Source: Candidatus Latescibacterota bacterium (GTDB taxonomy: Bacteria > Latescibacterota > UBA2968 > UBA8231). Taken from it: a stretch of DNA of 64,000 nucleotides. Shown here piece by piece: positions 28,905-51,906 of the stretch. The number at the start of each line of letters is the position of its first letter. The stretch's first letter is position 1. The notes beneath the pieces are model-generated. The model did not search any database and was not told where the DNA came from. It saw only the letters and a program-made list of their open reading frames with translations. The stretch is from contig CBDCDC010000002.1 in NCBI GenBank assembly GCA_965215195.1, positions 992,001 to 1,056,000 of the forward strand. The letters are read 5' to 3'. The translations under genes were made by a program, and so were the position numbers.

Positions 28905-30428
28905 TTATGCCTTGGCTGACTGCAAAATGAGCCTGCCAGCGTTCTTCATCTGCCTCAGAATGACGAACCAAGTCCCCCCCCCGACAATATATCCAATAGC
29001 CAGCATCCAAGACTGATTCTCTATTATTGCCACTAAGGGAGCCACCACGAATAAGTAGCAATAGATAAAACAGGCCACTTCACTGACTGATCGTCTGCCG
29101 CTTTCGGCATTGAGAGCTTTGGCAAGCCCGTGAATTGCGACGAAGTTCCAGTAAAAATTAAAGAATGGTACAAAGAGAAATCCAACGGCTTTGTCGGGCG
29201 TCGTCTTCGCTTTATGAGTGGGAATGAGGGACCACAGCTTATGCAGAATAAGGCAGCCAAACAGGCCAGAAAGCAAAAAGGACACGACACAGAGAAAAAA
29301 GACCAGCGCATTATCTTTATCTAGATATAGCCTCGCATTGTTGGCCGCGACCAACATAATGGAGAATATCAGTGTGCTGACAAAGCAAATGCAATGGAGC
29401 TTAAACCAAGTGTTCAAGCGATCCGCGTCTTTAACTTTGGCGGCTGACTGAGTACGTACAGATTGTTCAATGGGCGGCATGGGCGGCGTATCAACGCGCT
29501 CGCTGCCCGTGCCCTGCCTTCCCTCCTCTTGGCGACGCTCCTGCTGCGGGTCCGCCTCCGCTTCCAGCACCTCCTGCCACGCCTCCACACTCTGCGGACG
29601 ATCCCCTTCATCCACCGACAACGCCGCATCGATCGCCAACAAAAACGCACCACTCGCCTGACCCGCACACCGCTGAGATACCGGAATCAGCGGATCGTTT
29701 CGTTCCCTAACCGTCGCATCGTCAGGCACCTGACCCGTCAACGCTCGATAACACACCCCACCCAACGCATAAAGGTCCGTCCAAGGCCCCTGATTCCCCC
29801 GACTCGAATACTGCTCTATCGGTGCATACCCCGGCGTTACGATAGACGTAACCGAACGACTCTTCGCCCCGATCGCCTGCCGCGCCGCCCCAAAGTCCAG
29901 CAACACCGGCGATCTATCTTTTCGCAAGACGATGTTGCCCGGCTTGATGTCCCGATGCAAAAAGTCCGCCCCATGTATCACTTTTAAGGCAGCCAATAGC
30001 GAATACAGAATCGCTTTAAGCTCGGCTTCGCTCAGCGTCCCCTTGCGCGTCAGATACGCCGACAAGTCCTCCCCTTCCACATAATCCATGGCGATGTACG
30101 CCGTGTTGTGCGCTTCAAAGTATTGATGGACGCGGACGATGTTGGGATGTCGGAAACGCGCCAGCGTGCGGGCTTCGTCCAAAAACCGCTCCAAGCCCCA
30201 GTGGAAGTCGGACGCCGCCCGCGACGACTGCGGCACGACGGACAGGTCTTGTTCGCGGGTGGCCAAGTCGGCCGGCAGATACTCCTTGATGGCTACGGAA
30301 ATATCCAGCACCACGTTCCGTCCTAGATAGGTAATGCCAAACCCGCCATGGCCGAGTACGCGGTCAAACTCAAAGTCCCAGATGCGCGTCCCCGGCGGCA
30401 GCGCCAAGAGGTGCTGTTCCTCACTCAT
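28905..30428 (-). CDS. Ser/Thr protein kinase with C-terminal multi-TM (DUF4328-like) domain
   Basis: LGHGGFGITY, VAIKEY, HRDIKPGN, DFG, GYAPIEQ, DLYALG; C-terminal TPDKAVGFLFVPFFNFYW and about 4 TM segments. Confidence 0.92.
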   Translation of the reverse strand: MSEEQHLLALPPGTRIWDFEFDRVLGHGGFGITYLGRNVVLDISVAIKEYLPADLATREQDLSVVPQSSRAASDFHWGLERFLDEARTLARFRHPNIVRVHQYFEAHNTAYIAMDYVEGEDLSAYLTRKGTLSEAELKAILYSLLAALKVIHGADFLHRDIKPGNIVLRKDRSPVLLDFGAARQAIGAKSRSVTSIVTPGYAPIEQYSSRGNQGPWTDLYALGGVCYRALTGQVPDDATVRERNDPLIPVSQRCAGQASGAFLLAIDAALSVDEGDRPQSVEAWQEVLEAEADPQQERRQEEGRQGTGSERVDTPPMPPIEQSVRTQSAAKVKDADRLNTWFKLHCICFVSTLIFSIMLVAANNARLYLDKDNALVFFLCVVSFLLSGLFGCLILHKLWSLIPTHKAKTTPDKAVGFLFVPFFNFYWNFVAIHGLAKALNAESGRRSVSEVACFIYCYLFVVAPLVAIIENQSWMLAIGYIVGGGTWFVILRQMKNAGRLILQSAKA

Positions 30429-30482
30429 AAATCCCTCCTATTGTTCATGCCGGCACAACAGATGAACCATAGTCAGCTTATT

Positions 30483-31847
30483 TCACTCTCGAGCACCGTA
30501 AAGGCGCAACACCGACGCTGTCGAAGAAGCATTATACTCCCCCGCAACGTGTAGCGGCGTATGGCCCTCGGTGTTTATGGCATTGACTTTAGCTCCCTGC
30601 TCGAGCAACACCCCCGCCGTCAAAGAAGCATGATGCTGCGCCGCAACGTGCAGCGGCGTCAAGCCGTACCTGCATCTGGCATCCACAGCTGCCCCTTGCT
30701 TAATTAGGGATAGCGTCAGCACGGACAGGTTCAGTTTCGCTGCATAGTGCAGGTCGGTCATGCCCTTATCGTCCATCGCGTCCGGGGACGGCTCTCGCCC
30801 CACTTCCGCGACAAATCTTTCTCGCGCCCCCTCCAGATTCGCTTGGCGACGCGCTTGCGCTAGGTCCGAATCCCCCAACGCCTCTCGCCACGCCGCAACA
30901 CTCTTCGGACGATCCCTCCCAGCCACCTGCAATGCCTTGTCAATCGCCGCAAGAAACGCTTGACTTGTTTGACCCGCACACTGCTGCGATACTGGAACCA
31001 GCGGATCCTTCCGCACCCGAACCGTCGCATCGTCGGGCACCTGACCCGTCAATGCCCGATAGCACACCGCACCCAACGCATAAATATCCGTCCAAGGCCC
31101 CTGAGGCCCCCGCTCCTCATACTGCTCTATCGGCGCATATTTCGGCGTTACGATCGACGTAACTGGACGGCTCTTGGCCTCTATCGCCTGCCGCGCCGCA
31201 CCAAAATCTAGCAACACCGGCGCTCCATCTTTCCGCAAGACGATGTTGCCCGGCTTGATGTCCCGATGCAGAAAGTCCGCCCCATGTATCACTTCTAAGG
31301 CATCCAACAGTGGATAAAGAATGTCCTTAAGCTCGGCTTCGCTTAGCGTCCCCTTGCGCGTCAGATACGCCGACAAGTCCTCGCCCTCCACATAGTCCAT
31401 TGCGATATACGCCGTGCTATGCGCCTCAAAGAAATGATGGACGCGGACGATGTTAGGGTGCTCAAACCACGCCAGCGTGTGGGCTTCGTCCCTGAAGCGG
31501 TTCAAGCCCCAGTGGAATACAGACCACGCCAAGGAGTCAGACTCGTCCTGCGACGACGGCGGCACGACGGACCAAGACCGCGTGGGGGCTTCTTCCACCA
31601 AGAAGCGTTCCAAGTCCCCTTGGAATACAGACTCGTCCTGCGACGACAGCGGCACGACGGACAGATCGCTTTCGCGGATAGACCAGTCCACGGGTAGGTA
31701 CTCTTTGATCGCCACCGGAATATCCAAGGCCGTGTTCCTGCCCAAATAGGTGATGCCGAACCCACCACGGCCGAGGACGCGGTGAAACTCAAAGTCCCGG
31801 ATGCGCGTCCCCGGCGGCAGGGCCAAGTGATGCTGTTCCTCACTCAT
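30483..31847 (-). CDS. Ser/Thr protein kinase with C-terminal ankyrin repeats
   Basis: Same Hanks motifs; GMTDLHYAA, GLTPLHVAA, GHTPLHVAG. Confidence 0.92.
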   Translation of the reverse strand: MSEEQHHLALPPGTRIRDFEFHRVLGRGGFGITYLGRNTALDIPVAIKEYLPVDWSIRESDLSVVPLSSQDESVFQGDLERFLVEEAPTRSWSVVPPSSQDESDSLAWSVFHWGLNRFRDEAHTLAWFEHPNIVRVHHFFEAHSTAYIAMDYVEGEDLSAYLTRKGTLSEAELKDILYPLLDALEVIHGADFLHRDIKPGNIVLRKDGAPVLLDFGAARQAIEAKSRPVTSIVTPKYAPIEQYEERGPQGPWTDIYALGAVCYRALTGQVPDDATVRVRKDPLVPVSQQCAGQTSQAFLAAIDKALQVAGRDRPKSVAAWREALGDSDLAQARRQANLEGARERFVAEVGREPSPDAMDDKGMTDLHYAAKLNLSVLTLSLIKQGAAVDARCRYGLTPLHVAAQHHASLTAGVLLEQGAKVNAINTEGHTPLHVAGEYNASSTASVLRLYGARE

Positions 31848-32928
31848 AATTTGTCCCTTCTTTCTTTTTTGGCGGCTCGTTCAGCTCGGATTTCTCTCCT
31901 TCAGCACGGGTGCTGTCCCCTGTCTCCTCCTCCTGAGAGGCCGGCGCGCCCTCTTCAGCAGGTTCAACAGCAGGGGCGGCTGCCGGCATCCTCTCAACAG
32001 CCACCTCTTCGCCCCGCCTAAGCCAATAAAGCATCCCCCATAAAACGGCAACACATAGCAACATCCCCAACAGTCTGCCCCAGCGTTTTCGTTTTAAGCG
32101 CGGCTTACTCTGAACAGCTTCCCCCTCGCCAACAGCAGCCGCAGCCCCTTCCGTGTCCTCGGCCGGCGCGTACAACAAGACGGTCGTATTGTCCTGCTGG
32201 GGATGCTCGGCCGCTTCCACCGCTTGGATAAGAGCCGCAACACTATCCTCCAAGGGCGCGTCTTGCGTTTCTTGGAGGATGGCCGCGATCGCTGGATCGC
32301 TGAGGGTCATCAAACCATCGCTCGCCAACAGCAGCCGGTCCCCTTGCTCGACCGCCACCGGCTGGGACGACACGTCAATCAGATGGATGGCATCGCCCAT
32401 GACCGCTGACCGCAGCGAATGCCGACTTGAATCCTGCGCGGCTTCCTCTGCGGTCATGCGCCCGGTGGCCACCAAGTCCGCCAGCACCGGTGCCATCGAG
32501 TGGTCGGCATTCAAGCGGCTCAATTGCCCCTCGTGGAACAACCACAACGGCGAGTCGCCCACGCTGATCCAGTGCAGCCCTTCGCTTGCAACAACCGCCG
32601 CAACCAAGGTCGAACCCATGCTGTCGAGTGCGGGATTTTCGGCAATGGCCGCAGCCATGGCTTCATTAGCCTCTTGGAGACAGGCCCGCAGCCGATCGAC
32701 GATGGGCCCCGAAGCCTGCGGATACGCCGCGACAAAGGTCTTGCTCAACAGGCCACTGGCCGTTGCGCCGCCCACGTGGCCGCCCATGCCATCGGCGACC
32801 ACCAACATGGTGTGCTCGCGGCCGTCGAGGCCGAGGTCGCGCCCATCCAGCAGGCCGTAATCATCCTCTTGATAGGCCCGCTGGCCGGGAATTTGCCGGG
32901 CGGCAAAGCGCCCGTCTAATGCGTTCAT
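31840..32928 (-). CDS. PP2C/PPM Ser/Thr phosphatase with C-terminal TM anchor
   Basis: RAYQEDD, VADGMGGH, VGDS, DHS, LLASDGL, QDNTT; LLGMLLCVAVLWGMLYWL. Confidence 0.92.
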   Translation of the reverse strand: MNALDGRFAARQIPGQRAYQEDDYGLLDGRDLGLDGREHTMLVVADGMGGHVGGATASGLLSKTFVAAYPQASGPIVDRLRACLQEANEAMAAAIAENPALDSMGSTLVAAVVASEGLHWISVGDSPLWLFHEGQLSRLNADHSMAPVLADLVATGRMTAEEAAQDSSRHSLRSAVMGDAIHLIDVSSQPVAVEQGDRLLLASDGLMTLSDPAIAAILQETQDAPLEDSVAALIQAVEAAEHPQQDNTTVLLYAPAEDTEGAAAAVGEGEAVQSKPRLKRKRWGRLLGMLLCVAVLWGMLYWLRRGEEVAVERMPAAAPAVEPAEEGAPASQEEETGDSTRAEGEKSELNEPPKKKEGTNYE

Positions 32929-33578
32929 TGCGCCTCGCTTGCTTCTGTATCCTGCCAATCAAACTCGGCACCGCACAGGGGCACGAAGCGAAGAACCGTA
33001 TGGCCGATACAGATGTGACTCAGGGCCGGCAACTCAGCCGGTGTGAGCACGGGCTGGTCCCCGAGATACGTCAGATTCTTGCCGCCGCCGTGCTGCACGT
33101 AAAACCTCCGGCCGCGCGGATCGTACGTGACAACGGCATGGCCATTGCGCGAAATCTGATCGTCGCCAAAATCGAGCTTGATGCGGTCGGTGGCTCCGCG
33201 TCCAATCGAATTAGAGCCATACCCCAACCGCACGGCTCGCCCCTTGCCCGGCCCCTCCACAACCACCAGCCACCCCACAACCGGATCATCCATGCCGCGA
33301 TCCGCTGCGGCGCGCTCCTGCCGGCGCTCCTCGTCTTCTCGCCGCGGCCGCCCTCCCACCAAGCGCGTCCGCTCCTTCTCGTCGACATTGGCCGGCGCAC
33401 GGCTTTCGCCCATTGGCTGGGTGGGCGCATCTAAACGCCCGGCACCGGCGGGTTGCTCGCCATCCGGTGGTGCCGGCGGCAACGGCCTGTGGGCTCTGTC
33501 CGTTGGTTTGGTATCCTCGTTCCGCTTCTCGGTTTTCTCTTCAATGATTTTGCCATCGGGGACGCGATAAACAGGCAT
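32925..33578 (-). CDS. FHA domain protein with disordered N-terminus
   Basis: PVVGWLVVVEGPGKG, SIGRG, ISRNGH, GGKNLTYL. Confidence 0.88.
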   Translation of the reverse strand: MPVYRVPDGKIIEEKTEKRNEDTKPTDRAHRPLPPAPPDGEQPAGAGRLDAPTQPMGESRAPANVDEKERTRLVGGRPRREDEERRQERAAADRGMDDPVVGWLVVVEGPGKGRAVRLGYGSNSIGRGATDRIKLDFGDDQISRNGHAVVTYDPRGRRFYVQHGGGKNLTYLGDQPVLTPAELPALSHICIGHTVLRFVPLCGAEFDWQDTEASEAQ

Positions 33579-33611
33579 GGTGCCCTCCTATTTTTGGGTT
33601 GTTCCAGCAAC

Positions 33612-34397
33612 TTACTTTTCGTAGAGCCGGTTGATTAAGTTGTCTAGACAGTATTGGCCGGATTGGTTCAAGGCCATCTCTTCCCGGCTTTGTGCAATGT
33701 GCAGCGCAAACACCAGCAGGGCCGACTGGACCAACGCCAGCAAGGTCGTGTAAAACGCAACGCCCAGCCGACCGGTGATCTCCGCCAGCAAGGTCGGGTC
33801 CTGTGGGTCTTCAATGTTGGCCGCATAATCCAAGGCAAACGCAATGCCCACCACCGTGCCGATAAAGCCCAACGTTGGCATCAGCCATACGAGATAGCGC
33901 AACATCGCGTATTTGAGTTCGAGCTCGTGTTGGAACAATTCGAGGGACGAATTCAACAACGAGTTGGCTTGATTGACCGAGTGGCTCCCCTGAAATTGTA
34001 GAATGCAGCGCATGATCAGACGCTGTAAATAAAAGGGGCGCTCCTCGGCCTTGGGCCGCACCGTTTGATAAAAGGACCCCAAATCCCGCGCCCGCAACAT
34101 GACCGCATCGTCTTCCGGCAGATAGCGTTTCGCCACCTGCTCCATTTCGAGCTGGGCTTGGTTAAACCGCACCCAGAGTTCACCGCAGCCAAGCCAAAAC
34201 ATGAGCCACATGACGTTTTGGATGGTAAAAGGATAGGGGAAATTCTCGGTGTGGCGATCTAGCAGGAAAGCACCGGCCGCCGAATCGGGATGACCGAAAA
34301 TAAGGCTCATAATCGCGATGGATACGACGCCTCCTAGCAGACTGATGACGCTTGCTTTTAGGCGTTGCTCTAGCTCTACCCCTCGCCCGTTTGCCAT
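33612..34397 (-). CDS. MotA/TolQ/ExbB proton channel family protein
   Basis: LMPTLGFIGTVVGI...LGVAFYTTLLAL. Confidence 0.88.
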   Translation of the reverse strand: MANGRGVELEQRLKASVISLLGGVVSIAIMSLIFGHPDSAAGAFLLDRHTENFPYPFTIQNVMWLMFWLGCGELWVRFNQAQLEMEQVAKRYLPEDDAVMLRARDLGSFYQTVRPKAEERPFYLQRLIMRCILQFQGSHSVNQANSLLNSSLELFQHELELKYAMLRYLVWLMPTLGFIGTVVGIAFALDYAANIEDPQDPTLLAEITGRLGVAFYTTLLALVQSALLVFALHIAQSREEMALNQSGQYCLDNLINRLYEK

Positions 34398-34398
34398 G

Positions 34399-34782
34399 TC
34401 AATCCTCCTCGCCCATGATCTCACCCGTATCTACGTTGCGCCGCACGGGACCTACGGGCAGGCTGTCCGGCTGCGTGGGTTTGCCGCCTTCTGAACGGCG
34501 CTCCTCTTGCGCGGCCAGCGCGATGAGTGCGGGTGCGGTCGTCTGGTAATGACCGAGTAAAATCGCCTCTGTCGGGCTTATAAACTCCTGCCGGATGCGT
34601 CTCCACTCGCCGTTCCGCGCCACATAACTACCCCCGCTGCTAGCGCAATCCGTCAGGTAGTACGAGCCGCTTGGCGTCGCAAGTAGCTCGGCGTGGACGC
34701 GAGAAACCGAATCATCGTCAATCTGGATGTCCACGCCGGGGCTGCGCCCAATTCGATACACCGAAAACGTCGATTTGTTCAT
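34399..34782 (-). CDS. Small FHA domain protein
   Basis: IGRSPGVDIQIDDDSVSRVHAEL...LTDCASSGGSYV. Confidence 0.88.
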   Translation of the reverse strand: MNKSTFSVYRIGRSPGVDIQIDDDSVSRVHAELLATPSGSYYLTDCASSGGSYVARNGEWRRIRQEFISPTEAILLGHYQTTAPALIALAAQEERRSEGGKPTQPDSLPVGPVRRNVDTGEIMGEED

Positions 34783-34783
34783 G

Positions 34784-35776
34784 TCAACCCGGCTTGGCCC
34801 CTATGAGATAGCCGTTGTTTTGTTCGGTTAGCTGCACCAGAAAATCAATAAATTTCCGGTCTGTCACGTAATTGCCAACGGCTACGGCATGTATGGGTAT
34901 GTTCCGCCTGTTCTCCGCCGTTACAGCCCGCACGACCATGTGCCAATCTTCAGAGGGGGCCCCATCGCTCAACAGGACGATCTCTTCGGGGTGCAGTGCA
35001 ATCGCCGCCAGCAAAGCTTCGCGTGTGGGCGTACCGCCATCCACTAATCTCATCCAGTCGTTCACCTGTCCGACAACGCGATCTCGCGTATTCCTTCTTA
35101 CTTGAAAGTACCCTCTATTTTGAGGCCAATAGTGCAACGCCGTCCTCTGGTTTGGGGCGTGAAAACCAATGAGACAGACCTCTATTTCCGCCTTAAAAGC
35201 AGCGAGCATGTCTTGAATGGCCAATGTTATGAACTGGCGATAATCTTGCTTTCCAGGCTGATAAATACTGCCCGACATATCTATGACGAACGCGAACTTT
35301 CTCGCCTTCGTCTTAATGCCTAATAAAACGGTTGTGTCATCTATCTCCTGTTGCAAAGCCTCCACTCGTTTTGCAAGCTGACCTTTTGCTTTCGCCGCTT
35401 CGGCCTTTGCCCGCTCCAGCTCCTGTTGCAAAGCCTCCACCCGTTTTGCAAGCTGACGTTCTGTCTTCGGAGCTCTGGCCTTTGCCCGCTCCAGTTTGGC
35501 TTTCTCCTGTCTTAGCTTGGCTTTTTCCCGTTCCAGCTTAGCCTTCTCCCGCTCTGCTTTGGCCTTTGCCTGCTCTAACTCGGCCTGCGCCTGTTCCTGC
35601 GCCTGTTCCTGCGCCTGTTCCTGCTCGGCCTTTTCCTGTCCCGACAGGTTCAGATTTGGAAAAAAGGGCAGCAGCACTACGGTAATGAGTATGAAAGCGC
35701 CGAGTGCCGAGGCGAACAGATCGAGCGCGGACATGCTAAAGATGTTGAACTCGCGGCTGCGTTTCTTCATGCCCAA
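34784..35776 (-). CDS. Membrane-anchored vWA protein with ExbD/TolR-like N-terminal TM and coiled coil
   Basis: FSMSALDLFASALGAFILI (Asp in TM); QEQA and QLAKRVEALQQE repeats; MIDAS DMSGS...GGT...LLSDG. Confidence 0.85.
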   Translation of the reverse strand: MGMKKRSREFNIFSMSALDLFASALGAFILITVVLLPFFPNLNLSGQEKAEQEQAQEQAQEQAQAELEQAKAKAEREKAKLEREKAKLRQEKAKLERAKARAPKTERQLAKRVEALQQELERAKAEAAKAKGQLAKRVEALQQEIDDTTVLLGIKTKARKFAFVIDMSGSIYQPGKQDYRQFITLAIQDMLAAFKAEIEVCLIGFHAPNQRTALHYWPQNRGYFQVRRNTRDRVVGQVNDWMRLVDGGTPTREALLAAIALHPEEIVLLSDGAPSEDWHMVVRAVTAENRRNIPIHAVAVGNYVTDRKFIDFLVQLTEQNNGYLIGAKPG

Positions 35777-35782
35777 TACCCT

Positions 35783-37096: not shown

Positions 37097-37099
37097 TGT

Positions 37100-43130: not shown

Positions 43131-43241
43131 AACCAACCTTCCTTCATCAATACAGTGAAAACGCTTTTAGAAATCGAAAAGAGCGTCAAAAAAATGCTGT
43201 TTGCACAACTTTCAGCACTCTAACACTGACTATTCTGACCG

Positions 43242-44131
43242 TCAATAGACGTGTGAATCTGCCAATGACCTATCTCGAATGAGAAAATAAAAAACAAAAC
43301 TGGCGATTTTTAAGAGTGCAGTGGTATAAGAAATCAAAAAAATACTTAGCGAATAACTGATGAGAAATTGGAATTGACTTCCCATTAAATAGTACGTGGC
43401 GATTGTTGAGCCGGCAGAGGTCGCGACAAAAAAGAAAAAACAAGCCCCAACTTCCCACTTGTTATCCAACATAAGGGCTCTGGTAAGCCGATAGATTGTG
43501 CCGACCTGATATTCTCTCTCAACTACGATAAACTTCATCCCAAGCGACAGAAAACCAGCGTACATGATAAGTAAAGGTAGAATGCACAGACTAATCACAG
43601 TCCATGCAAGTATGGGGGAACTCAGCGTACGAGAAAAAAAAACAAAAATGGCGAAATTATAGCGACTATAAGCCCGGAGAGGAGATAAAATGAGCCTTTG
43701 AAAATTAAAGCAGGCTTAAAATACATCCGACCATAAGAAATTACCTGTGTGGAACGATAGCTATTTTTTAGGAGTAAGTCGCGAATGATCGCAGCCAGTC
43801 CTGTATCGTTATAAAAGGCGATCAGAAACGAACCTATCAAGAGACTGGCTACAATAATTAGAGATTTCGGCTGTTCAAAATTGAGATATTCCATGCGATG
43901 AAGCACACGCAACAATTCTTCAAAATGCCCCACCTGAACATCTTCAAGTGCATGTCGAAAGGCATTGATATTCACACTGTCTGCAATCATTTCGTACAAT
44001 GTCTTATCTGTAAATTGTTCAATCAGGTCAATAATTTTGCCAAACACCACGGAAATTAGCGCAATGCCGATGAGTTTCCGATTGCGATTCATCACGATAA
44101 ACCCTCGTTTGAGGGAAACTGCCCAAATCAT
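43242..44131 (-). pseudogene. Membrane protein split by a frameshift in a T9 tract (ORFs 43622-44131 and 43242-43598)
   Basis: Downstream frame is open back to the A9 run at 43634-43642; one extra base fuses them into a ~296-aa hydrophobic protein. Confidence 0.6.
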
Positions 44132-45507: not shown

Positions 45508-45654
45508 TTTTTCTCCTTTCTAATTCTCTGGTTTCAGCTATCAGGACCGATGCCTTCCATCAAAAGAAAGGGAAGCATTGCCTGACTCTGGTTTATCGTA
45601 TGTAGGTGATGAAGAATAGGGCTTGCTCCCCCGCCGTGCCTTTAGGGTAAGGTC

Positions 45655-47250
45655 CTATTCAACTTCAAGGCTTTGCAGGTGCTCGGTGGCTTCTGCGACC
45701 TCTGCCTCGTTAAGTGTTGGCCGTTCAATCGTTGCGTTTGCAGTGCGTCCATCAGGTCCCTCTACCGTTACCTCAAGCGTCTGATCTAGGTTATATTTGA
45801 AGGTAACATGAATTGGTGCTCCCTTAGATAGTCCAGAAGGCAGTTGAAGAGAGCATTCACCCAACTTGTAATCCTCAAACTTGACATACCCGTCCTCTTT
45901 TTGCTCTTGTTCAAGCCCCTGAATGACCGGTATCAGAGTTGAAGATTGGTTATCATGCCTTGTTACATAGTCTTTCCTTATCTCGCAAGGAACTGGAGTC
46001 ATCTTGGGAATTATCACATCGATGTGAGGCTCTTCTTCGTTCTCATAATAAACCGCGGTCCCGAGATTGTGAGTAGCACCATCAACCACCGTTACTTTGG
46101 GTGCCCCGGCAGGGCCGACGAATCGATCGATGACAGCGTCCGGAATGTCTTCTGTTGCGGCTGTGTCAGAAGTTCCGCTCGTCCCCTCCTCAATCTGGCG
46201 GAGGGTTCCCTGAATCGCTGCGCCGAGTGCTACCGCATCATCGGGATTGACCTCCTGTGGGTTAATCTCTTTGCCGCTGATTTCGGCAATCATCTTTTGC
46301 ACCATCGGCATCCGGGTTGACCCACCCACCAATAGCACTGTGTCAATATCGCTCCACGTCATGTTCCCTTCAGCGAGTACCACATCGCACAAGCCTCGGC
46401 ATCTTTCGACAAGATCGTGGGTCAGTTCCTCAAACTTTTCGCGCGTCAACTCAACGCGGCTACTCTTGCCGTTATAGTTGCATACAATTCGTGCCCTCTG
46501 CAGTCGGGATAAAGCTTCCTTTGCCGCAATTGCCCTCAGTTGGATATCTTGATACGTCTCAAGAGCCTGTAACGGATTTTCGCCGTGTTCACTCTCAAAC
46601 ATTTCGGCCACATGGACGATTATTGCATCGTCCCAATCCTTCCCCCCAAGTCTGTGGTCGCCATTTGTTGCTATCATCTCTATTCTAGAATCAGAAACCT
46701 TCGTGATGGTTACGTCAAACGTCCCACCCCCAAGGTCAAATACGAACACAGTCTGGTCGCTGCCCAACTGATCAAGCCCGTAGGCAAGTGCAGCCGCAGT
46801 CGGTTCATTAAGCACTTGCAAGACGTTCAATCCCGCAATTTTACCGGCGCTGCGCGTCGCCTCACGCTCTGCGTCACGAAAATAAGCGGGGACAGTGATG
46901 ACCGCATCGGTGATCTCCGTCTTAAGATACGCCTCGGCATCCTGTTTGAGTCTTTGCAAAATCAGCGCGGAGAGTTCTTCGGCTGAATACTTCTTACCAT
47001 TAAATTCTCGGGAAAACTCCTCTTTGGATTTGCCCATTTCGCGTTTGACGAACTCTACGATCTGCTCTGGCATCAATGCAGCGTTCTGCTTGGCGACTTT
47101 CCCAACGGTGATGACCTCCTCAAACAGAATCACTGAGGGCGTAAGTCGATCACTTTCCTCGTTTGGAATGATCTCCGGCTGGGCATGTTCGTTGACATGC
47201 GCTATCGCAGAAAATGTCGTTCCTAGATCAATTCCAACAACTTTAGCCAT
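45655..47250 (-). CDS. Hsp70 family protein (short, lid-less)
   Basis: GIDLGTT, TVPAYF, NEPTAAALAYG, DLGGGTFD, LLVGGSTRMP, NPDDAVALGAA; 531 aa. Confidence 0.93.
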   Translation of the reverse strand: MAKVVGIDLGTTFSAIAHVNEHAQPEIIPNEESDRLTPSVILFEEVITVGKVAKQNAALMPEQIVEFVKREMGKSKEEFSREFNGKKYSAEELSALILQRLKQDAEAYLKTEITDAVITVPAYFRDAEREATRSAGKIAGLNVLQVLNEPTAAALAYGLDQLGSDQTVFVFDLGGGTFDVTITKVSDSRIEMIATNGDHRLGGKDWDDAIIVHVAEMFESEHGENPLQALETYQDIQLRAIAAKEALSRLQRARIVCNYNGKSSRVELTREKFEELTHDLVERCRGLCDVVLAEGNMTWSDIDTVLLVGGSTRMPMVQKMIAEISGKEINPQEVNPDDAVALGAAIQGTLRQIEEGTSGTSDTAATEDIPDAVIDRFVGPAGAPKVTVVDGATHNLGTAVYYENEEEPHIDVIIPKMTPVPCEIRKDYVTRHDNQSSTLIPVIQGLEQEQKEDGYVKFEDYKLGECSLQLPSGLSKGAPIHVTFKYNLDQTLEVTVEGPDGRTANATIERPTLNEAEVAEATEHLQSLEVE

Positions 47251-48325
47251 CTCTTTCCTCTCCTTTTTCGGTTGGGGATGGTGTGTATCGGAAAATTGTC
47301 ACCTCTTCTGGACGGAACACCTTATCCCGCCAGTAGAATCCGATTTTGTGAACTTCTGCCACTTTCCAATCCTGCTCAGGGGTATCGGCAGGTTTTGTGT
47401 AGAGCGTTTTGTGCAACTTCCGGTTCAGTGTCTCCAGACGTTCCTCGTACGGGATCACATCCAGACGGAACAAAACTTCTTCTAATTCTAAGCGCACATT
47501 CTCCAGATTCTTCTGAAATTGATACAGGTCATTAGAACGAATATCCTCCGTTGCGTTGAGAATACCATTGAGTTGTGATTCAATCAGCTTAAAGTTATCG
47601 TAGAACCCGATCAAATTTTGGATAATCGGCTTGTGATGAGCCTCAAGGAGGGAATTTTCCTTGTACTCCTTCATTTCGCGATGGATCGCGTCAAACATCT
47701 TATTCTGATTCGCGTTGCGAGCAATCTGTTCTTCAAACAGTTGCCGCAACTCGGACAAGCTCTGCGTCACTTCTGTCAGTGAGTCTGTCTGTAATGCCGG
47801 CGGATCACCCTCTGGTGTTGACGGATCCGTTGCCTCAACCACGTCTATTTTCGACGGCGTTTCAACGCGCAGGGTCAGGCATGGGCCAACCGGTTTGTGA
47901 AAAGCCTCAAGGTACTCCTGCATTTCACGGTAAAGCGCGTCGAACCTGTTGTTTTTATCTCGGTTTTGGGCAATCTGTTCTTCAAACAGTTGCCGCAACT
48001 CGGACAAGCCCTGAGTCACCTCTGCCAGCGAGTCTGTTTGTAATGCCGACGGTTCATCCTTTTCTGTCGAGCTTTCACCACCATCACCGTTGGTCTCTGA
48101 GTGTGAGTTAGCACCTGTACCCAACTCATCCTCTGAAGGCGTATCAGTTTGTGATGCCTCAGGCTCACCCTCTGGGGTTTGTCGATCCGTTGTCTCGCCC
48201 GCAGCTATTTCGGGTGAGGTTTCACTGTCATTACTGTCGTTTTCTACCGGCAAATCGGGGACCGTATCCGAAGTGGCCCCTGACGTTGCATCATCGGGTT
48301 TTTTCTTCCTAGACCAAGGCCACAT
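47243..48325 (-). CDS. grpE: GrpE-like nucleotide exchange factor with acidic N-terminus and duplicated coiled coil
   Basis: C-terminal LNRKLHKTL...VAEVHKIGFYWRDKVFRPEEVTI; located between two Hsp70 genes; RBS gaggagg. Confidence 0.8.
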   Translation of the reverse strand: MWPWSRKKKPDDATSGATSDTVPDLPVENDSNDSETSPEIAAGETTDRQTPEGEPEASQTDTPSEDELGTGANSHSETNGDGGESSTEKDEPSALQTDSLAEVTQGLSELRQLFEEQIAQNRDKNNRFDALYREMQEYLEAFHKPVGPCLTLRVETPSKIDVVEATDPSTPEGDPPALQTDSLTEVTQSLSELRQLFEEQIARNANQNKMFDAIHREMKEYKENSLLEAHHKPIIQNLIGFYDNFKLIESQLNGILNATEDIRSNDLYQFQKNLENVRLELEEVLFRLDVIPYEERLETLNRKLHKTLYTKPADTPEQDWKVAEVHKIGFYWRDKVFRPEEVTIFRYTPSPTEKGEERDG

Positions 48326-48405
48326 CGTAACCTCCTCTATCAAAAGTAAGTAGTAAAGGTGAGCAAGAATTCAAATCCTTGCTTCGCTTCTGATTCGTAG
48401 ATGAT

Positions 48406-50478
48406 CTATAATCTCATCAGCCCACTGCCACCCCACGAAGATTCCGTGACGAGGCGACCTGCAATGGTGGTAAAAGTCGATTCAAGCTGAACGCTCTCCT
48501 CTGCGAAATAGTAGTCCTCGGGGGTTGACCCAACTTGCTTGAGATACTTGCTATCGACACCATTACCGACACCAATCGTAATCATTCGGATCCCTTGATG
48601 TTTTGCGAGTTCAGCTTCTCGGCTCGTACTACTTGAGTCATTGGGCATGCCATCGGTCAACAAGATAAGCACATTCTCATTATCGCTGTTGACCAATACT
48701 TGCTTTCGGGTAAGAGCGATTGCCTCGGCCATTGGCGTACTACCATCGGCATTCAAGTTTTTGATTGCCCGGCGGAGTTTCGCAAAATCTTGTGTGAGTT
48801 CCATCTGAATGTGAGCAGAGGGATTCCCAAAACTGACAAGCCCTACGTGGGCACTCGGATCGATATTATCGAGGAATTGAACTGCGGCTTTTCTTGCATC
48901 GCGGATTTCTTGACCAAACATACTCATCGAGCAGTCAATGACCAAGGCGATGTCCATAGGCACAGGCTCAGGAGCAACGAGGCTGTCCCAATCAATATCC
49001 TCCACCTTCTTCCGCTTGGGAAGTGCTTTTCCAGAAAGCACATCCTCGGCTTCGACCTCAATCACGCCACTCGCGTTATATTTGAAAGTGACTCTGAGGC
49101 GCGTCTCCCCAGCAGGGCGTGGTGGGATATTGTAGATTTCATAAGCGTCGCGCACGGGGCAATCGCGTGGGTCTTGCATGTCTCCCTGTACCACAATCAC
49201 ATCAAATTCCGTTTGATCGGGGCTTGTCGTCTCATAGTTGTCACGGCTAATCTCACAGGGGATGTTGGTGTTTTTTTTAATAATCGTACTGTTGCTCAAT
49301 TCTCCGATCTCGTCTAGGACGACCATCCCGAGGCTATGGGAGCAAACATCGCTAATCCGCATGATGCCCGTAATTGGGGCAGGTCCTGCACCGATGAATC
49401 GGCGTTCTTCTGTCTGTTCGGATTGAATAAGTGCGCCCATCCCTGCGGCACCAATCGCGACGGCTTCATCGGGATTGACCGAAGTATCCGGCGGCTTTCC
49501 GAAGTCTTGGGCCAGCATGTCGCGAATCATCGGCAGGCGCGTTGAACCACCGATCAAGAGGACCGTGTCAATCTGCTCCCGCGTTAAATTCGCTTCTATC
49601 AATACGACATCTACGAGGCCCCTACATCTTGTGACCAGATCAGATGTAATTGCCTCAAATTCCTGCCGGGTGAGTTGGAGACGAAGAGTTTTTCCCGCGT
49701 AATTAGCAGTAATCGCGGCTCTGTTGCGGGTTGACAACTGACTCTTGGCATGAACCGCACTCGCCTGAAGATCTTGGTAGGCATGAAGGTCAACCAATGG
49801 ATTTTCGCCGTGTTCAGTTTCAAATATTTTGGCCACATGGACGATTATTGCATCGTCCCAATCCTTCCCCCCAAGTCTGTGGTCGCCGTTAGTCGCTAAA
49901 ATTTTCATCTCCTGTCCATCAACTTCCATGATAGTCACATCAAAGGTGCCACCGCCAAGATCAAAGACTAAAACCCTTGACTTACTGCCGCTCTGGTGCA
50001 TGCCATAAGCGATAGCAGCGGCGGTTGGTTCATTGATGATGCGGTGAACTTTAAGCCCTGCGATTTCCCCTGCACGAATAGTCGCCTGCCGTTCCGAGTC
50101 ATTGAAGTAGGCGGGGACCGTAATAACAGCATCGGTGATCTCCGTGTTAAAATACGCCTCGGCATCCTGTTTGAGTTGTTGCAAAATCAGCGCGGAGAGT
50201 TCTTCAGCCGAATACTCCTTACCATTAAATTCTCGGAAAAACTTCTCTTTGGATTTGCCCATCTCGCGTTTGACGAATTCTACGATCTGGGCTGGCATCG
50301 CTACAGAGTTCTGCTTGGCGATTTTCCCAACGGTGACGAGATCATCCTCAAACAGAATCACTGAGGGCGTAAGTCGATCACTATCCGCGTTTGGAATGAT
50401 CTCCGGCTGGGCATGTTCGTTGATATGTGCAACAGCAGAAAATGTGGTCCCTAAATCAATCCCGATTATTTTGGGCAT
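48406..50478 (-). CDS. Hsp70-vWA fusion protein
   Basis: Full Hsp70 NBD motifs and SBD-beta (DVCSHSLG...FKYNASGVIEVEAED), then vWA DIALVIDCSMSM...GSTPM...LLTDGMPN...ITIGVG. Confidence 0.92.
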   Translation of the reverse strand: MPKIIGIDLGTTFSAVAHINEHAQPEIIPNADSDRLTPSVILFEDDLVTVGKIAKQNSVAMPAQIVEFVKREMGKSKEKFFREFNGKEYSAEELSALILQQLKQDAEAYFNTEITDAVITVPAYFNDSERQATIRAGEIAGLKVHRIINEPTAAAIAYGMHQSGSKSRVLVFDLGGGTFDVTIMEVDGQEMKILATNGDHRLGGKDWDDAIIVHVAKIFETEHGENPLVDLHAYQDLQASAVHAKSQLSTRNRAAITANYAGKTLRLQLTRQEFEAITSDLVTRCRGLVDVVLIEANLTREQIDTVLLIGGSTRLPMIRDMLAQDFGKPPDTSVNPDEAVAIGAAGMGALIQSEQTEERRFIGAGPAPITGIMRISDVCSHSLGMVVLDEIGELSNSTIIKKNTNIPCEISRDNYETTSPDQTEFDVIVVQGDMQDPRDCPVRDAYEIYNIPPRPAGETRLRVTFKYNASGVIEVEAEDVLSGKALPKRKKVEDIDWDSLVAPEPVPMDIALVIDCSMSMFGQEIRDARKAAVQFLDNIDPSAHVGLVSFGNPSAHIQMELTQDFAKLRRAIKNLNADGSTPMAEAIALTRKQVLVNSDNENVLILLTDGMPNDSSSTSREAELAKHQGIRMITIGVGNGVDSKYLKQVGSTPEDYYFAEESVQLESTFTTIAGRLVTESSWGGSGLMRL

Positions 50479-50569
50479 TTGGATTTTCTCCTTATGTAAC
50501 ACAGTATTGTGTATCGGCGTAGTGCCATCCTTGTCCTGCACGTTGACATCGGAGCCGCGATCGCGATAA

Positions 50570-51460
50570 TTAACGCTCGGTCTGAAGCCTCTTTGCTCTT
50601 TTATCTAAGGCTTGGAACAACGGGCGGCTGGATCGCTCATATATCGTAAAAGACTTTTCTGCTTTTTCTTTATCAAATTTGGCGGATGCATCTATTTTAA
50701 TTGACCTTGTCCTCAGAGCAGAGGTTAAGTCAGAAGTTTTTGAAACTTCGTTAATTCGATCGATTAGGTCGTTCGTAGGAATGGTAAAACTTCCGTTGTC
50801 GTCCGTGCGGTACGTCGTATCTTTGTCGAATTGCGGAAGGGAGACAGAGACGGGATGATTGGGAATATTTATAGGGTCATCCAGTCTCGCCGGCAAGGTC
50901 TTCCAGTCTGTACTTTTTGTTTTTATGCCGCCTTTTATATCAAGAGGGTCCCGTAAGCCGTTTGTGCCGCCGTAAAAAAAAGAAAGTAACAAAGTCGATA
51001 ATGCGTCTGATGCAACACCAATAAGAATCGTTTTTTGATTCTCTTTAAAAAACTCTCTTTCCTTGATGTATTCGTCTCCTGCAAATAATTCATCCGGATA
51101 GAGTGCCCCAAAGTAAAACACAAGCTCCACAATGCTTAAACCAAGCATTATTGCTCGGCCTGGGCCCTTCACTCCCCATCTATATGTAGTAATTGCTCGG
51201 TGTTGTTCTTGGTAATAGGGTTGATATTGCAAATGGAAACTGATCCCATCACTCGTTGGCGTTGGCGTTGGCGTTAAGGCCAGTTTGAACTCTTTTTTAT
51301 TTAAGTCTGTTCTTCGTGTTTCTCGAGTTGTTTTGACTCCTTGCTTTTCCATTGAAAGAGGCATTATTAATGCACAACCCGTCAAGCTACATGCCATTAT
51401 GACAATGAGAGAGTCTCTAACCGGCCCCCTCAGATAAATAAGTAAAGTGCTGACTGGCAT
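50570..51460 (-). CDS. Hypothetical lipoprotein A (paralogue of 38879-39718)
   Basis: LIVIMACSLTGC lipobox identical to the paralogue; shared C-terminal domain. Confidence 0.75.
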   Translation of the reverse strand: MPVSTLLIYLRGPVRDSLIVIMACSLTGCALIMPLSMEKQGVKTTRETRRTDLNKKEFKLALTPTPTPTSDGISFHLQYQPYYQEQHRAITTYRWGVKGPGRAIMLGLSIVELVFYFGALYPDELFAGDEYIKEREFFKENQKTILIGVASDALSTLLLSFFYGGTNGLRDPLDIKGGIKTKSTDWKTLPARLDDPINIPNHPVSVSLPQFDKDTTYRTDDNGSFTIPTNDLIDRINEVSKTSDLTSALRTRSIKIDASAKFDKEKAEKSFTIYERSSRPLFQALDKRAKRLQTER

Positions 51461-51552
51461 TATACTTCCTTCCGTAACGCGCAAAACAGCCCTCCCTTGG
51501 GAATATAAAGGCCGCTTAACCCGAACAGACGTTCAGTTAGGTATTGCGTTAT

Positions 51553-51906
51553 CTACAAGAGGAGTAGATATACTGCGGCAGCCGCTGCAGACATTCGTCC
51601 ACCGCCTTCAACAGTAGCAATCGGGTCACTAAACCAACCCTTTCGTCCCTCATAAACTTCGTTATCTTCAACAGTAGCAATCGGGTCGCTAGACCAACCC
51701 TTCCTTCCCTTATAAACTTCGTTACCTTCAACAGTAGCAATCGGGTCGCTAGACCAACCCTTCCTTCCCTTATAAACTTCGTTACCTTCAACAGTAGCAA
51801 TCGGGTCGCTAGACCAACCCTTTGGGTAGGTAAACACCTCGCCTTTCTCCACTATCAGAATAGGATCGTCAGACCAACCCTTTTGACCTTGATAAACTTT
51901 AGCCAT
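51553..51906 (-). CDS. Small protein of five 20-aa repeats (beta-flower-like)
   Basis: (EVYKGRKGWSSDPIATVEGN)n ending GGGRMSAAAAAVYLLLL; RBS aggagg; 60-bp DNA period. Confidence 0.75.
   Translation of the reverse strand: MAKVYQGQKGWSDDPILIVEKGEVFTYPKGWSSDPIATVEGNEVYKGRKGWSSDPIATVEGNEVYKGRKGWSSDPIATVEDNEVYEGRKGWFSDPIATVEGGGRMSAAAAAVYLLLL

Follow-up and report, generated by a model that had tools for sequence, protein, structure and literature searches.

TolQ-like pentamers have been predicted to pair with vWA proteins via an Asp-bearing trans-pore helix and, in the sections of that work that deal with these pairs, they are described without a TolR/ExbD gene (PMC12204202, published in 2025). 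In addition, passages of two other papers provide precedents in which Hsp70-like ATPases or vWA/PP2C/kinase triads are linked with conflict systems (PMC7159879, PMC11090510). Here we describe a locus within a 64,000-nucleotide stretch of DNA (the window) that carries a putative motor pair (g14/g16) like the one in the first prediction, next to kinases, which are absent from that prediction as set out in those sections. We found no description of a system matching the locus in the literature, and PADLOC, run on the locus, gave no system-level match, only generic kinase matches and weak ZorA/ZorB matches. This agrees with the original prediction, which had not recognised the assembly as a named system.

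RESULTS

Twenty genes form one row

The ORF list of the window contains 20 ORFs between 28905 and 52023, all on the minus strand, in a row of ∼23 kb. About 19 genes on one strand had been predicted; the strand was right and the count was one short. The widest intergenic gap, between 45655 and 45507, measures 147 nt, five ORF pairs overlap as the predicted overlapping start/stop codons had implied (47243/47250, 44128/44131, 34399/34424, 32925/32958 and 31840/31847), and Pfam matches along the ORFs reproduce the predicted domain inventory and order almost exactly. The row consists of a chaperone-containing part, g01–g11 (38879–52023, the cassette), and a signalling part, g12–g20 (28905–38758, the core). 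The gene order is the same in a second species (G010), and a contig from two public runs covers 38677–39719, across the cassette/core junction, with zero differences; therefore the juxtaposition of the two halves is not an assembly artefact, and the 23-kb row is confirmed as a real observation. The G+C content is 0.43–0.50 in the cassette, 0.55–0.63 in the core and about 0.59–0.66 in the flanks. A consensus scan of 28000–47900, junction included, found promoter- and terminator-like sites at chance frequency only. The window contains no tRNA gene, and of the four flanking ORFs tested, none was recognised as a phage or mobile-element gene.

The core is a self-standing conserved unit

The core begins with two related genes. 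g12 (37100–38758) encodes an inactive trypsin-like domain, an Ala/Lys-rich linker, a TM helix (390–408) and a predicted cytoplasmic FHA domain, and g13 (35783–37096) an active-looking trypsin-like protease, also with a TM helix and a cytoplasmic FHA (Pfam Trypsin_2 and FHA in both). The catalytic positions read H-D-S, with GNSGGPL, in 29/29 g13 orthologues and H-N-F in all 28 readable g12 orthologues, a count that leaves out a 29th, in which truncation has removed two of these positions; the call of g12 as a pseudoprotease is thus upheld. g13 has 545 database relatives at E ≤ 1e-10. The next gene, g14 (TPH-vWA, 34784–35776), combines an N-terminal MotB/ExbD-like trans-pore helix carrying an Asp, a coiled coil and a predicted periplasmic vWA head. 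Its helix motif, SALDLFASALGAF, is kept in every orthologue displayed, apart from a single substitution in G001 and another in G034/G031, and its N-terminus gave weak matches to the ZorB models of PADLOC. The Pfam VWA match (E 2e-4) is below the cut-off; the DMSGS MIDAS motif is present, with DxSxS visible. g16 (33612–34424) is a TolQ/ExbB/MotA-family channel protein with three hydrophobic helices (Pfam MotA_ExbB, E 3e-10) and 77–93% identity across two families. The remaining genes encode a small cytoplasmic FHA protein (g15, 34399–34782; Pfam FHA, E 4e-13), another FHA protein, whose N-terminal region is long, disordered and charged (g17, 32925–33578; FHA, E 9e-7), a PP2C phosphatase with DGMGG and DNTT motifs and a C-terminal TM helix at 295–313 (g18, 31840–32958; PP2C_2, E 4e-12) and two Hanks-type Ser/Thr kinases. 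The first of these, g19 (30483–31847; Pkinase, E 2e-37, and Ank_2), has C-terminal ankyrin repeats, and g20 (28905–30428; Pkinase, E 6e-37), the last gene of the cluster, ends in a membrane domain with three hydrophobic segments after the kinase domain.

The genome of the window (G000) has three copies of g12–g20, with 61–95% protein identity, which group together as a single clade when the concatenated core is used for tree building. Chaperone genes adjoin the window copy only. Loci with the core gene order were obtained from three of the class's four families, and a core marker protein finds a match at E ≤ 1e-40 in 28 of 132 class genomes. The core (28905–38758) is thereby shown to be a self-standing conserved unit. 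Upstream of g12, different genomes have kinase/ankyrin genes, unknown ORFs or collagen/LDL-repeat lipoproteins, and this region may be no more than a site where foreign DNA inserts.

The cassette occurs without the core in other genomes

The first cassette gene, g01 (51553–52023), encodes a small repeat protein with a 6-fold beta-flower (Pfam Bflower_3, PF21786, E 5e-17) and contains tandem repeats of 60 nt (D4); homologues lie directly upstream of Hsp70-vWA in L021, L023 and G010. g02 (lipo1, 50570–51484) and its duplicate g11 (lipo2, 38879–39757), the last gene before the core, are 56% identical as proteins and were matched to no family by the Pfam search. Both had been called lipoproteins, and both do have a lipobox (LTGC in g02), yet each has two further hydrophobic segments. 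Their DNA blocks (D5, D10–D13), 80–88% identical and 11.7 kb apart, are direct repeats that bracket the cassette; g11 is absent from G010. The N-terminal domain of g02 is common to proteins of 965–1003 aa in L020, L021 and L023, of which the L023 protein, the one tested, has CARDB and caspase domains as well, and it recurs in a 664-aa protein adjoining the core of G011.

The chaperone genes follow. g03 (48406–50541) is a lidless Hsp70 with a C-terminal vWA domain and its MIDAS (Pfam HSP70, E 7e-132, model positions 1–490 of 599; VWA, E 3e-26); the D-x-S-x-S motif is invariant in alignment A1, both domains are present in 98 of the 120 homologues listed, and the database copies begin 21 residues later (690 aa). 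g04 (47243–48343) is a GrpE-like exchange factor (Pfam GrpE, E 1.4e-11) with an internal duplication (D7, a 159-nt direct repeat of 80% identity), and g05 (45655–47250) is a second lidless Hsp70, a paralogue 57% identical to g03 (HSP70, E 7e-117, model positions 1–375 of 599). g06 (44128–45507) is a membrane-anchored protein composed of J-like helices without the HPD motif, a helical domain, an Ig/PapD-like sandwich and two C-terminal hydrophobic helices (373–391 and 435–453). The Pfam search matched no family in g06 itself, and Foldseek, run with its AF2 model (pLDDT 74), returned PapD/Ig-like sandwiches and nothing else; the predicted J-like character draws on alignment A2 with relatives, in L022 and in fourth position of the Myxococcota loci, that match Pfam DnaJ below the cut-off (E 1e-4 to 3e-4). 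Two small membrane proteins of no Pfam family come next, the 3-helix g07 (TM169, 43622–44131; 85% identity in G010, 84% in G031) and g08 (TM118, 43242–43598; 85% and 78%), whose homologues are fused into one 289-aa protein in L023. g09 (40737–43136) is a membrane protein whose N-terminal 3-helix domain is conserved and whose outer part varies (here Pfam PPC ×3 and Sel1 ×6), and g10 (39790–40704; Sel1 ×7), which encodes Sel1 repeats, is a local copy of the Sel1 part of g09, with a 108-nt repeat family (D1) and a 153-nt repeat (D6, 97% identical) that is also present at the 5′ end of g11.

Relatives of the C-terminal part of Hsp70-vWA occur in 147 species-level genomes. In 80 loci outside the class the recurring order is Hsp70-vWA, GrpE, Hsp70 and then the J-like protein, with a GrpE match after Hsp70-vWA in 40 of the 80, where ORF calling was crude. 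In the five closest outside loci, parts of the set of lipo-like, beta-flower, J-like, TM169/TM118 and g09-type proteins recur, and L023 has them all. The Hsp70-vWA/GrpE/Hsp70/J-like cassette is also kept in Poribacteria and Myxococcota; in three Myxococcota loci examined closely, the module sits amid apparently ordinary genes, as judged by the N-termini of the neighbours. Within the class, the C-terminal part of Hsp70-vWA is present in two of 132 genomes (G000 and G010), and the J-like protein in one of the 31 genomes of family f2 (G031). When the nine core proteins were compared with the 80 outside loci by tblastn (E ≤ 1e-5), none of the loci, 41 of which include at least 8 kb downstream of the Hsp70-vWA gene, was matched, and no orthologue of the protease-FHA marker was seen in any of the ten outside cassette-bearing genomes tested. 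These results run against the view of chaperone and signalling halves as one system. Horizontal movement of the cassette is the best explanation.

The cassette is docked upstream of the core in two families

Of the 26 core loci examined in the class, three, from two families, have cassette genes on the upstream side of the core, and the other 23 have none there. In all three (G000, G010 and G031) they are immediately upstream of g12 and in the same orientation. The two halves thus do co-occur elsewhere: G010 has both, and in G031, a member of another family, cassette genes abut the core. The flanks of the whole block differ between G000 and G010. The G031 contig stops inside the J-like gene, and a cassette-type Hsp70 was looked for in the G031 assembly without success. 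The core tree follows the family split, with 56–77% identity per gene between G000 and G031, and g12 of G031, the neighbour of the junction, is no nearer to G000 than is g12 of cassette-free f2 genomes. The cassette, in contrast, is about equally distant in both comparisons, as seen with TM169 and with the J-like protein (57–61% to G010, 61% to G031). This difference indicates separate placements, and the sequences point to a cassette that was placed upstream of the core separately in two families; the differing histories make the docking look non-random. Indirect support comes from two contig sizes, 86,375 and 28,328 bases, each on record both for an Hsp70-vWA protein (83% and 77% identity) and for a protease-FHA cluster (92% identity between its representative and that of G031); the equal sizes, rather than a reading of the DNA, suggest that cassette and core markers lie together there. 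At best, the coupling of cassette and core is facultative. The original prediction of one integrated apparatus with private Hsp70s is therefore only partly supported, since the core is present three times in the genome, twice without chaperones, and 23/26 core loci of the class have no cassette.

DISCUSSION

We lean, with caution, towards reading the row as a composite of an autonomous core and an optional, horizontally moving cassette that is docked upstream and most likely feeds into the core. The functional input of the cassette would most likely be that of a sensor, adaptor or assembly cartridge and not of an obligatory part. It is possible, though on balance unlikely, that the two are neutral neighbours, i.e. 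that the cassette is an unrelated mobile island in an insertion-tolerant spot, with no functional link to the core. The modules are mostly found alone (23/26 core loci, 80/80 outside cassette loci), the G+C of the cassette is foreign, the lipo-gene repeats bracket it and the region upstream of the core varies between genomes, all as expected for such an island. However, every cassette copy found in the 132 class genomes (three genomes, two families) adjoins g12 on the upstream side and shares its orientation. The histories of cassette and core differ, and it is improbable that a locus of roughly 10 kb in a 5–6 Mb genome would be hit twice by chance, unless the site itself attracts insertions. 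Moreover, in G011 a lipo-family protein lies among kinases beside a cassette-free core.

A role in conflict, for example against phages, is compatible with either architecture, and we regard it as doubtful. The motor, thresholded by kinases and FHA domains, and the proteases would be the effector, and the variable Sel1/PPC/ankyrin modules would sense invader proteins. The patchy spread (core marker in 28/132 genomes, cassette in 2/132), the multiplication of the core to three copies in one genome, the foreign G+C of the cassette, the exchangeable sensor-like domains (PPC/Sel1, FGE-sulfatase, and caspase on the L023 lipo homologue) and the precedents in passages of PMC7159879 and PMC11090510 are consistent with this role. 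The kinase domains also match the PADLOC PD-T4-6 and mad6 models (E about 1e-47), but at the domain level only, and PADLOC made no system-level call. In addition, Pfam found none of the usual effectors, such as a nuclease or an NTPase-STAND, in the 20 ORFs, the three Myxococcota loci showed no obvious island, and neither phage or mobile-element genes in the four flanking ORFs tested nor tRNA genes in the window were seen. Finally, an obligatory envelope-spanning machine of 19–20 genes, with Hsp70s dedicated to assembling the kinase/protease/motor complex, is very improbable: the single strand with gaps of ≤147 nt and five overlaps, the same order in G010 and the differing G000/G010 flanks, as though the block had been retained or transferred in one piece, would fit it, but the distribution data already contradict it, as two of the three core copies of the window genome have no chaperone half, 26 of the 28 class genomes with a core-marker match show no Hsp70-vWA and other phyla carry the cassette without the core.

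The mechanism put forward in the original prediction is hypothetical: variable surface modules would respond to a ligand, a kinase/PP2C/FHA switch would control a protease, and the Hsp70s would assemble or remodel the complex. For the composite of core and optional cassette, the domain content suggests how the parts might work. The Asp-bearing helix of g14 would sit in the TolQ/ExbB-like channel of g16, as in MotB/ExbD/TolR, with the vWA head reaching the periplasm. g12 and g13 supply the conserved dead/live pair, whose trypsin-like domains would lie in the periplasm, each joined through one membrane helix to a cytoplasmic FHA. The Hanks kinases may phosphorylate threonines, and the four FHA domains may read these marks and thereby assemble or gate a proton-driven motor, whose vWA head would pull on or position a partner in the periplasm, perhaps the g12/g13 pair or a substrate of that pair; the PP2C phosphatase would reset the switch. 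The Hsp70 engine of the cassette would be anchored on the inner side of the membrane, where it could act on the cytoplasmic parts of the cassette membrane proteins. The outward domain of g09, here PPC and Sel1, is exchangeable; elsewhere the outer part carries FGE-sulfatase domains (L023) or PPC only (G031).

Gene order and domain content of the cluster

The cluster is a row of 20 minus-strand ORFs (g01-g20, 52023 to 28905) in which, according to the ORF listing, intergenic gaps do not exceed 147 nt and five pairs of ORFs overlap; the original prediction had counted about 19 genes on one strand, of which the single strand held and the number became 20. In the upstream half, Pfam identified a beta-flower repeat protein (g01), a protein with a lipobox (g02), an Hsp70 followed by a vWA domain (g03), GrpE (g04) and a second Hsp70 (g05). 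Three minus-strand ORFs without a Pfam family come next (g06, the J-like protein, and g07 and g08, here TM169 and TM118), then three PPC domains with six Sel1 repeats in g09, seven Sel1 repeats in g10 and a second lipobox protein (g11). We refer to these eleven genes as the cassette and to the nine genes downstream, on the same strand, as the core: two proteins with both Trypsin_2 and FHA domains (g12 and g13), a membrane protein with a weak vWA match (g14), an FHA protein (g15), a MotA_ExbB protein (g16), a further FHA protein (g17), PP2C (g18), a kinase with ankyrin repeats (g19) and a kinase with a membrane tail (g20). The domain list previously read from the sequence was thus borne out almost item by item by Pfam across the 20 ORFs. 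A simple hydropathy scan placed single helices in both protease-FHA proteins, g14 and the PP2C, three helices in the TolQ-like g16 and two C-terminal helices in g06.

The G+C content is 0.43-0.50 at 42-52 kb, 0.55-0.63 in the downstream half and about 0.59-0.66 outside the cluster. Contigs from public runs bridge 38677-39719, across the junction of cassette and core. In three such runs (X1, X2 and X5) the summed contig depth at 34000-38900 was ∼2-5 times that at 42000-52000, depth not being equal to copy number, and this excess over the core is compatible with several core copies or with related strains. Consensus promoter and terminator scans of 28000-47900 stayed at chance level (17 sites versus 13.2 ± 3.6 and 19 versus 20.6 ± 5.0, respectively).

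The core is a self-standing unit

The downstream half of the cluster is a self-standing unit. By tblastn against the whole genome (G000), g12-g20 are present three times: in the window, at C2:2890960-2899448 and at C2:4031291-4040449 (the latter two are copies B and C), with protein identities of 61-95%. In the tblastn search of the genome with all 20 proteins, g01-g11 were single-copy, the internal lipobox and Sel1 duplicates excepted. ORF maps of copies B and C revealed no adjoining Hsp70, GrpE or J-like gene, and each copy has additional kinase and ankyrin genes nearby. As the three cores form one clade in the concatenated-core tree, with the same-class genomes G018 and then G010 as successive sisters, copies B and C arose within G000 by recent duplication of just the core.

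The core extends well beyond this genome. With g13 as the marker, 28 of 132 class genomes, spread across three of the four families, gave a match at E ≤ 1e-40, and 545 database relatives were found at E ≤ 1e-10 among 8000 scored candidates. The fetched loci keep the order of dead protease-FHA, live protease-FHA, helix-vWA, FHA, TolQ-like, FHA, (PP2C) and kinase(s). The catalytic positions of g13 read H-D-S in all 29 orthologues, and those of g12 read H-N-F in all 28 readable ones, one more sequence being truncated; the live/dead protease pair is therefore a conserved feature.

The g14 protein consists of one N-terminal helix and a vWA domain (Pfam VWA E 2e-4, below the cut-off) with a DMSGS MIDAS motif. 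Its helix carries the motif SALDLFASALGAF in all orthologues printed, apart from single substitutions in G001 and in G034/G031 (all three of the same class), and the Asp of the helix motif LDLFASA is kept in the three G000 copies and in 9/9 orthologues printed. Only the small FHA gene g15 separates g14 from g16 (Pfam MotA_ExbB E 3e-10). Among the 20 ORFs we found no ExbD, TolR, MotB or OmpA Pfam family, the sole ZorB-like signal being the N-terminus of g14. There is one such helix-vWA gene per core; double matches in two core loci (L120 and L127) are two pieces of one gene.

The kinase-ankyrin gene g19 (30483-31847) has an N-lobe insertion of ∼40 residues that repeats the adjacent segment, giving two copies of SVVP.SSQDES, and the Pfam kinase match therefore begins at residue 116. 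Upstream of another core copy in G001 (L111:9159-19998) lie three paralogous genes and then a protein of >2200 aa; the paralogue tested has collagen-like Gly-X-Y repeats and LDL-receptor class B repeats. These genes are a further example of variable cargo upstream of the core.

The Hsp70 cassette is a unit in its own right

The upstream half, too, is a unit in its own right. Database relatives of the g03 C-terminal part number 122 at E ≤ 1e-5, HSP70 and VWA being found together in 98 of the 120 listed, and the few source names among them are Poribacteria and Myxococcota. Hsp70-vWA relatives occur in 147 genomes (one per species scanned), and the best 80 of these 147 loci, which were kept, have a recurring order of Hsp70-vWA, GrpE, Hsp70 and a ∼600-aa protein with a sub-threshold Pfam DnaJ match.

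The five closest loci (62-69% identity) contain parts of the wider cassette set, and one of them, L023 from a Candidatus Poribacteria MAG, contains it in full. The beta-flower protein is present in L021 and L023, and the J-like protein in four of the five, the contig of L021 stopping short of it. TM169 and TM118 are one fused protein in L023. The N-terminal membrane domain of g09 recurs in proteins of L020 and L023, with FGE-sulfatase domains attached in the latter. A 965-1003-aa protein in L020, L021 and L023 shares the N-terminal domain of the lipobox proteins g02 and g11; in L023 (3211-6123) this domain is fused to CARDB and a caspase (Peptidase_C14), beside the Hsp70 cassette. The same domain, with a CARDB-like segment, is encoded in G011, a genome of the same class, by a gene that lies among kinases upstream of a cassette-free core (L101:5462-7453). 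It is the one element that we found with each module separately.

Both cassette Hsp70s are without a helical lid, the Pfam HSP70 match ending at model position 490/599 in g03, where the vWA domain follows, and at 375/599 in g05. Their ATPase motifs are canonical-looking (GIDLGTT and DLGGGTFD), and alignment A1 shows no variation in the MIDAS residues of the Hsp70-linked vWA. The g04 protein matches Pfam GrpE with E 1.4e-11 (44.8 bits versus a cut-off of 25.8 bits). A housekeeping dnaK lies elsewhere in G000 (C2:3383860). Within g04, at 47663-48070, we observed an internal 159-nt duplication (80% identity) by which a segment of ∼50 residues stands twice ahead of the GrpE domain; the GrpE-like protein has 366 aa in the window versus 324 aa in G010.

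The g06 protein had no match in Pfam, DnaJ included, and the HPD motif was not at the aligned position in alignment A2. Its putative J-likeness rests on this alignment and on the sub-threshold DnaJ matches of its relatives. An AF2 model (pLDDT 74) comprises N-terminal helices, a helical domain and a beta-sandwich, and Foldseek with the whole model returned PapD/Ig-like sandwich matches only and no J domain. The ESM Atlas gave weak leads, from g06 to a DnaJ cluster (0.77) and from g02 to unnamed clusters, and a metagenome scan with the J-like alignment gave two distant loci only, at 27-31% identity.

Several repeats lie within the cassette. The two lipobox genes (38890-39686 and 50584-51410) are direct repeats 11.7 kb apart with 80-88% DNA identity that bracket the cassette, and G010 has the upstream copy only. 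The g10 gene is a copy, made locally, of the Sel1 part of g09. A 153-nt direct repeat of 97% identity (39690-39842 and 40637-40789) stands at the 5' ends of g11 and g10; at both places it runs from the final codons of the gene before, through the spacer, to codon 23 of g11 or g10, and the Sel1 protein g10 therefore starts with the beginning of a lipoprotein signal peptide. PPC-type arrays that are 35-62% identical to that of g09 are also found elsewhere in G000, at C2:1767476-1769749 and C1:910746-912881.

Cassette and core are separate modules that appear to dock non-randomly

The two modules mostly occur apart. No tblastn match to any of the nine core proteins was found in the best 80 of the 147 outside cassette loci, 41 of which have at least 8 kb downstream and 45 at least 8 kb upstream. 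In the five closest cassette-bearing genomes, the search for a g13 orthologue gave generic protease-domain matches only, and five Myxococcota-type genomes had no g13 match at E ≤ 1e-20. Searches for the Hsp70-vWA part gave 2 genomes each time, out of 31 in the genus, 76 in the order and 132 in the class. No cassette gene lies upstream of the core in 23 of 26 evaluable core loci, these being loci with at least 5 kb upstream of g12, plus the added locus of G031; G006, G007 and G038 (<3 kb upstream) and a G001 fragment without g12 (L110) were excluded.

The modules nevertheless meet outside G000. In G010 the entire block except g11 is present, with the gene order unchanged and identities of 57-92%. 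In G031, which belongs to another family (f2), contig C20 starts within the J-like gene, of which residues 67-459 are left (61% identity), and continues with TM169 (84%), TM118 (78%), a PPC-bearing g09 homologue (63%) and then the core. Had the two halves never occurred together in other genomes, the original prediction would have been refuted; they do occur together in G010, and cassette genes accompany a core in G031. Its interpretation of the locus as a single system gave way to one of two modules, copies B and C being without chaperones and the outside cassettes without a core.

The G031 core is of the f2 type and groups with those of G034 and G038, the split between f1 and f2 being fully supported in the concatenated-core tree. 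Per gene, the G000 and G031 cores have 56-77% identity, whereas the G000 and G010 cores are 83-92% identical. In the cassette genes, G000 is about as similar to G031 as it is to G010. The cassette similarity is thus alike in the two comparisons though the cores differ, and the cassette therefore has its own history. The cassette reached the same place and orientation in two families. We considered a recombination tract, by homology, as an explanation of the docking in G031 and rejected it, as g12 of G031, the core gene beside the junction, is 62% identical to that of G000 versus 63% for cassette-free f2 genomes. For a shared insertion site, comparison of the G000 and G010 flanks gave no tblastx match above 70 bits; the flanks are unrelated.

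Further database proteins bear on the linkage. The longest contig is 86,375 bases for both an Hsp70-vWA protein (83% identity over the part searched) and a protease-FHA protein (92% identity to its G031 counterpart), and a second such pair has the figure of 28,328 bases in common; the equal contig figures of the two pairs are an indirect sign of linked modules. The locus is a composite of two uncharacterised modules whose docking appears non-random. A coupling of cassette and core is facultative; for G000 itself we find it plausible, the balance tipping slightly in its favour.

Relation to known systems

The g14/g16 pair resembles motors in which, according to the accessible part of PMC12204202 (Mol Biol Evol 2025, msaf138), TolQ-like pentamers are predicted to pair (5:2) with vWA proteins through an Asp-bearing trans-pore helix (TPH), without a TolR/ExbD gene. 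As in that description, the TolQ/ExbB-family g16 lies tightly beside a single-pass vWA protein, the helix of g14 has a conserved Asp and the cluster is without TolR, ExbD or MotB. Unlike the TPH-vWA genes described there, which come mostly (predominantly, not universally) in heterologous pairs, there is a single such gene per core. Moreover, as far as that part of the article goes, the motors differ from g14 and g16 in that the latter are embedded in an operon with kinases, PP2C, four FHA domains and a protease pair, preceded by an Hsp70 cassette; in its main text, the word 'kinase' is absent and 'FHA' matches FhaC only.

T6SS families had no match among the 20 ORFs and four flanking ORFs. In the PpkA-PppA-Fha1 pathway, the genes for a kinase, a PP2C and an FHA protein form part of a T6SS gene cluster or adjoin it. 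A further set of this kind is the TerY-P triad of vWA, PP2C and kinase, with a soluble TerY-like vWA protein and a C-terminal zinc ribbon on the kinase (accessible part of PMC11090510). So far as these descriptions extend, what the locus has in common with both is a reversible phospho-switch gene set of kinase, PP2C and vWA and/or FHA reader, and with TerY-P in particular the joint encoding of a vWA protein (g14), a PP2C (g18) and Ser/Thr kinases (g19 and g20). Compared with the TerY-P proteins described in that part, g14 is membrane-anchored with a motor helix whereas TerY is soluble, and the kinases here end in ankyrin repeats or membrane helices and have no Pfam zinc-ribbon family. Unlike both sets, the locus has four FHA domains, of which two sit on the tails of proteases.

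The mitochondrial PAM import motor consists of mtHsp70, Mge1/GrpE, Pam18 and the HPD-less Pam16. By analogy, the cassette may likewise place Hsp70 and GrpE at the inner membrane face through a membrane-anchored J-type protein, with an HPD-less component; unlike the PAM motor, no translocase channel was identified in the cluster. An HSP70-GrpE theme is also described for GAP1-N2 GTPase-centred conflict systems in the accessible part of Kaur et al. (eLife 2020, PMC7159879). With this theme and with DnaK-DnaJ-GrpE, the cassette shares, within that coverage, a dedicated gene set, distinct from the housekeeping dnaK, for an Hsp70 with GrpE and a J-type protein and for a second Hsp70 without the usual parts of the substrate domain. 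In contrast to the GAP1-N2 systems as presented there, no GTPase or tubulin is found among the 20 ORFs; in contrast to DnaK-DnaJ-GrpE, the Hsp70s are lidless, one of them ending in a vWA domain, and the J-like protein is HPD-less and membrane-anchored. Another combination is that of type III CoCoNuT, for which the accessible part of PMC11090510 (eLife 2024) describes an Hsp70-like NBD/SBD protein and the vWA/PP2C/kinase triad in one predicted McrBC superoperon. An Hsp70-like protein and such a triad stand together here as well; compared with that partial description, the 20 ORFs have no McrB GTPase, McrC (DUF2357), HEPN or coiled-coil nuclease, and the Hsp70s have canonical-looking ATPase motifs and their own GrpE.

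In PADLOC-DB 2.0, no protein set of any one system was matched. The sole strong matches were those of the kinase domains, to PD-T4-6 and mad6 (E about 1e-47 to 1e-48); the protease domain matched RT-Protease (1e-15), ZorA and ZorB were weak (1e-4 to 1e-5), and of the Hsp70s only g03 gave a match, to PDC-M61B (E 2.7e-4, 17.7 bits). In the published articles, whose supplements may hold relevant neighbourhood tables and were outside the scope, we found no description of either full module or of the combination, and no experimental work on either module. The earlier view that the whole assembly is not a named system thus stands, with neither a system-level match in PADLOC nor a description in the literature. 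The novelty is that of variants and of their junction, not of a wholly new kind of part.

A proposed mechanism and its implications

We propose that, in the core, the kinases would phosphorylate threonines, and that these marks would be read by the four FHA domains, two on the cytoplasmic tails of the periplasmic proteases and two on soluble proteins. This reading could assemble or license the TolQ-like/helix-vWA motor, whose proton-driven vWA head would then act on a periplasmic partner, and PP2C would reset the switch. In the cassette, the two lidless Hsp70s may be held at the membrane by the HPD-less J-like protein; the metal site of the vWA tip would serve to dock one Hsp70 to a partner, and GrpE would recycle both. 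As clients, the Hsp70s would probably take the cytoplasmic portions of the g09-type protein, whose outer domain is exchangeable, and of the small membrane proteins.

A bolder and rather unlikely possibility is that the cassette is an exchangeable cartridge that plugs a cytoplasmic, ATP-driven chaperone engine into a phosphorylation-gated, trans-envelope proton motor with tethered proteases. A target would be captured by the variable domains that face outward (PPC/Sel1 in this locus, FGE-sulfatase or caspase in others), the membrane-held HPD-less J-like protein and the vWA-tipped Hsp70 would turn the capture into a cytoplasmic signal, or pull membrane proteins, and the kinase/FHA layer would then license the motor and the live protease. 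If true, two sources of energy would thereby be coupled across the bacterial envelope in a new way.

Each module is conserved and has a wide distribution. With the core, proton motors of the Tol/Ton/Mot type would gain a dead/live protease pair and control by phosphorylation, and the cassette would show that membrane-tethered Hsp70s can work with neither a lid nor an HPD J-domain. The locus is one of few meeting places of the two, and their separate histories and repeated docking make cross-talk between cassette and core a testable hypothesis, for which G000 offers a natural experiment, with one core copy with a cassette and two without.

Upstream of the cluster, two ORFs (window 52529-54766 and 54606-56654) have a C-terminal CHU_C / type IX sorting domain (E 2e-10 and 3e-5), a hint that the organism is a diderm equipped for type IX secretion. 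As called, these two ORFs overlap by 161 nt, and one of the two starts is therefore probably wrong.
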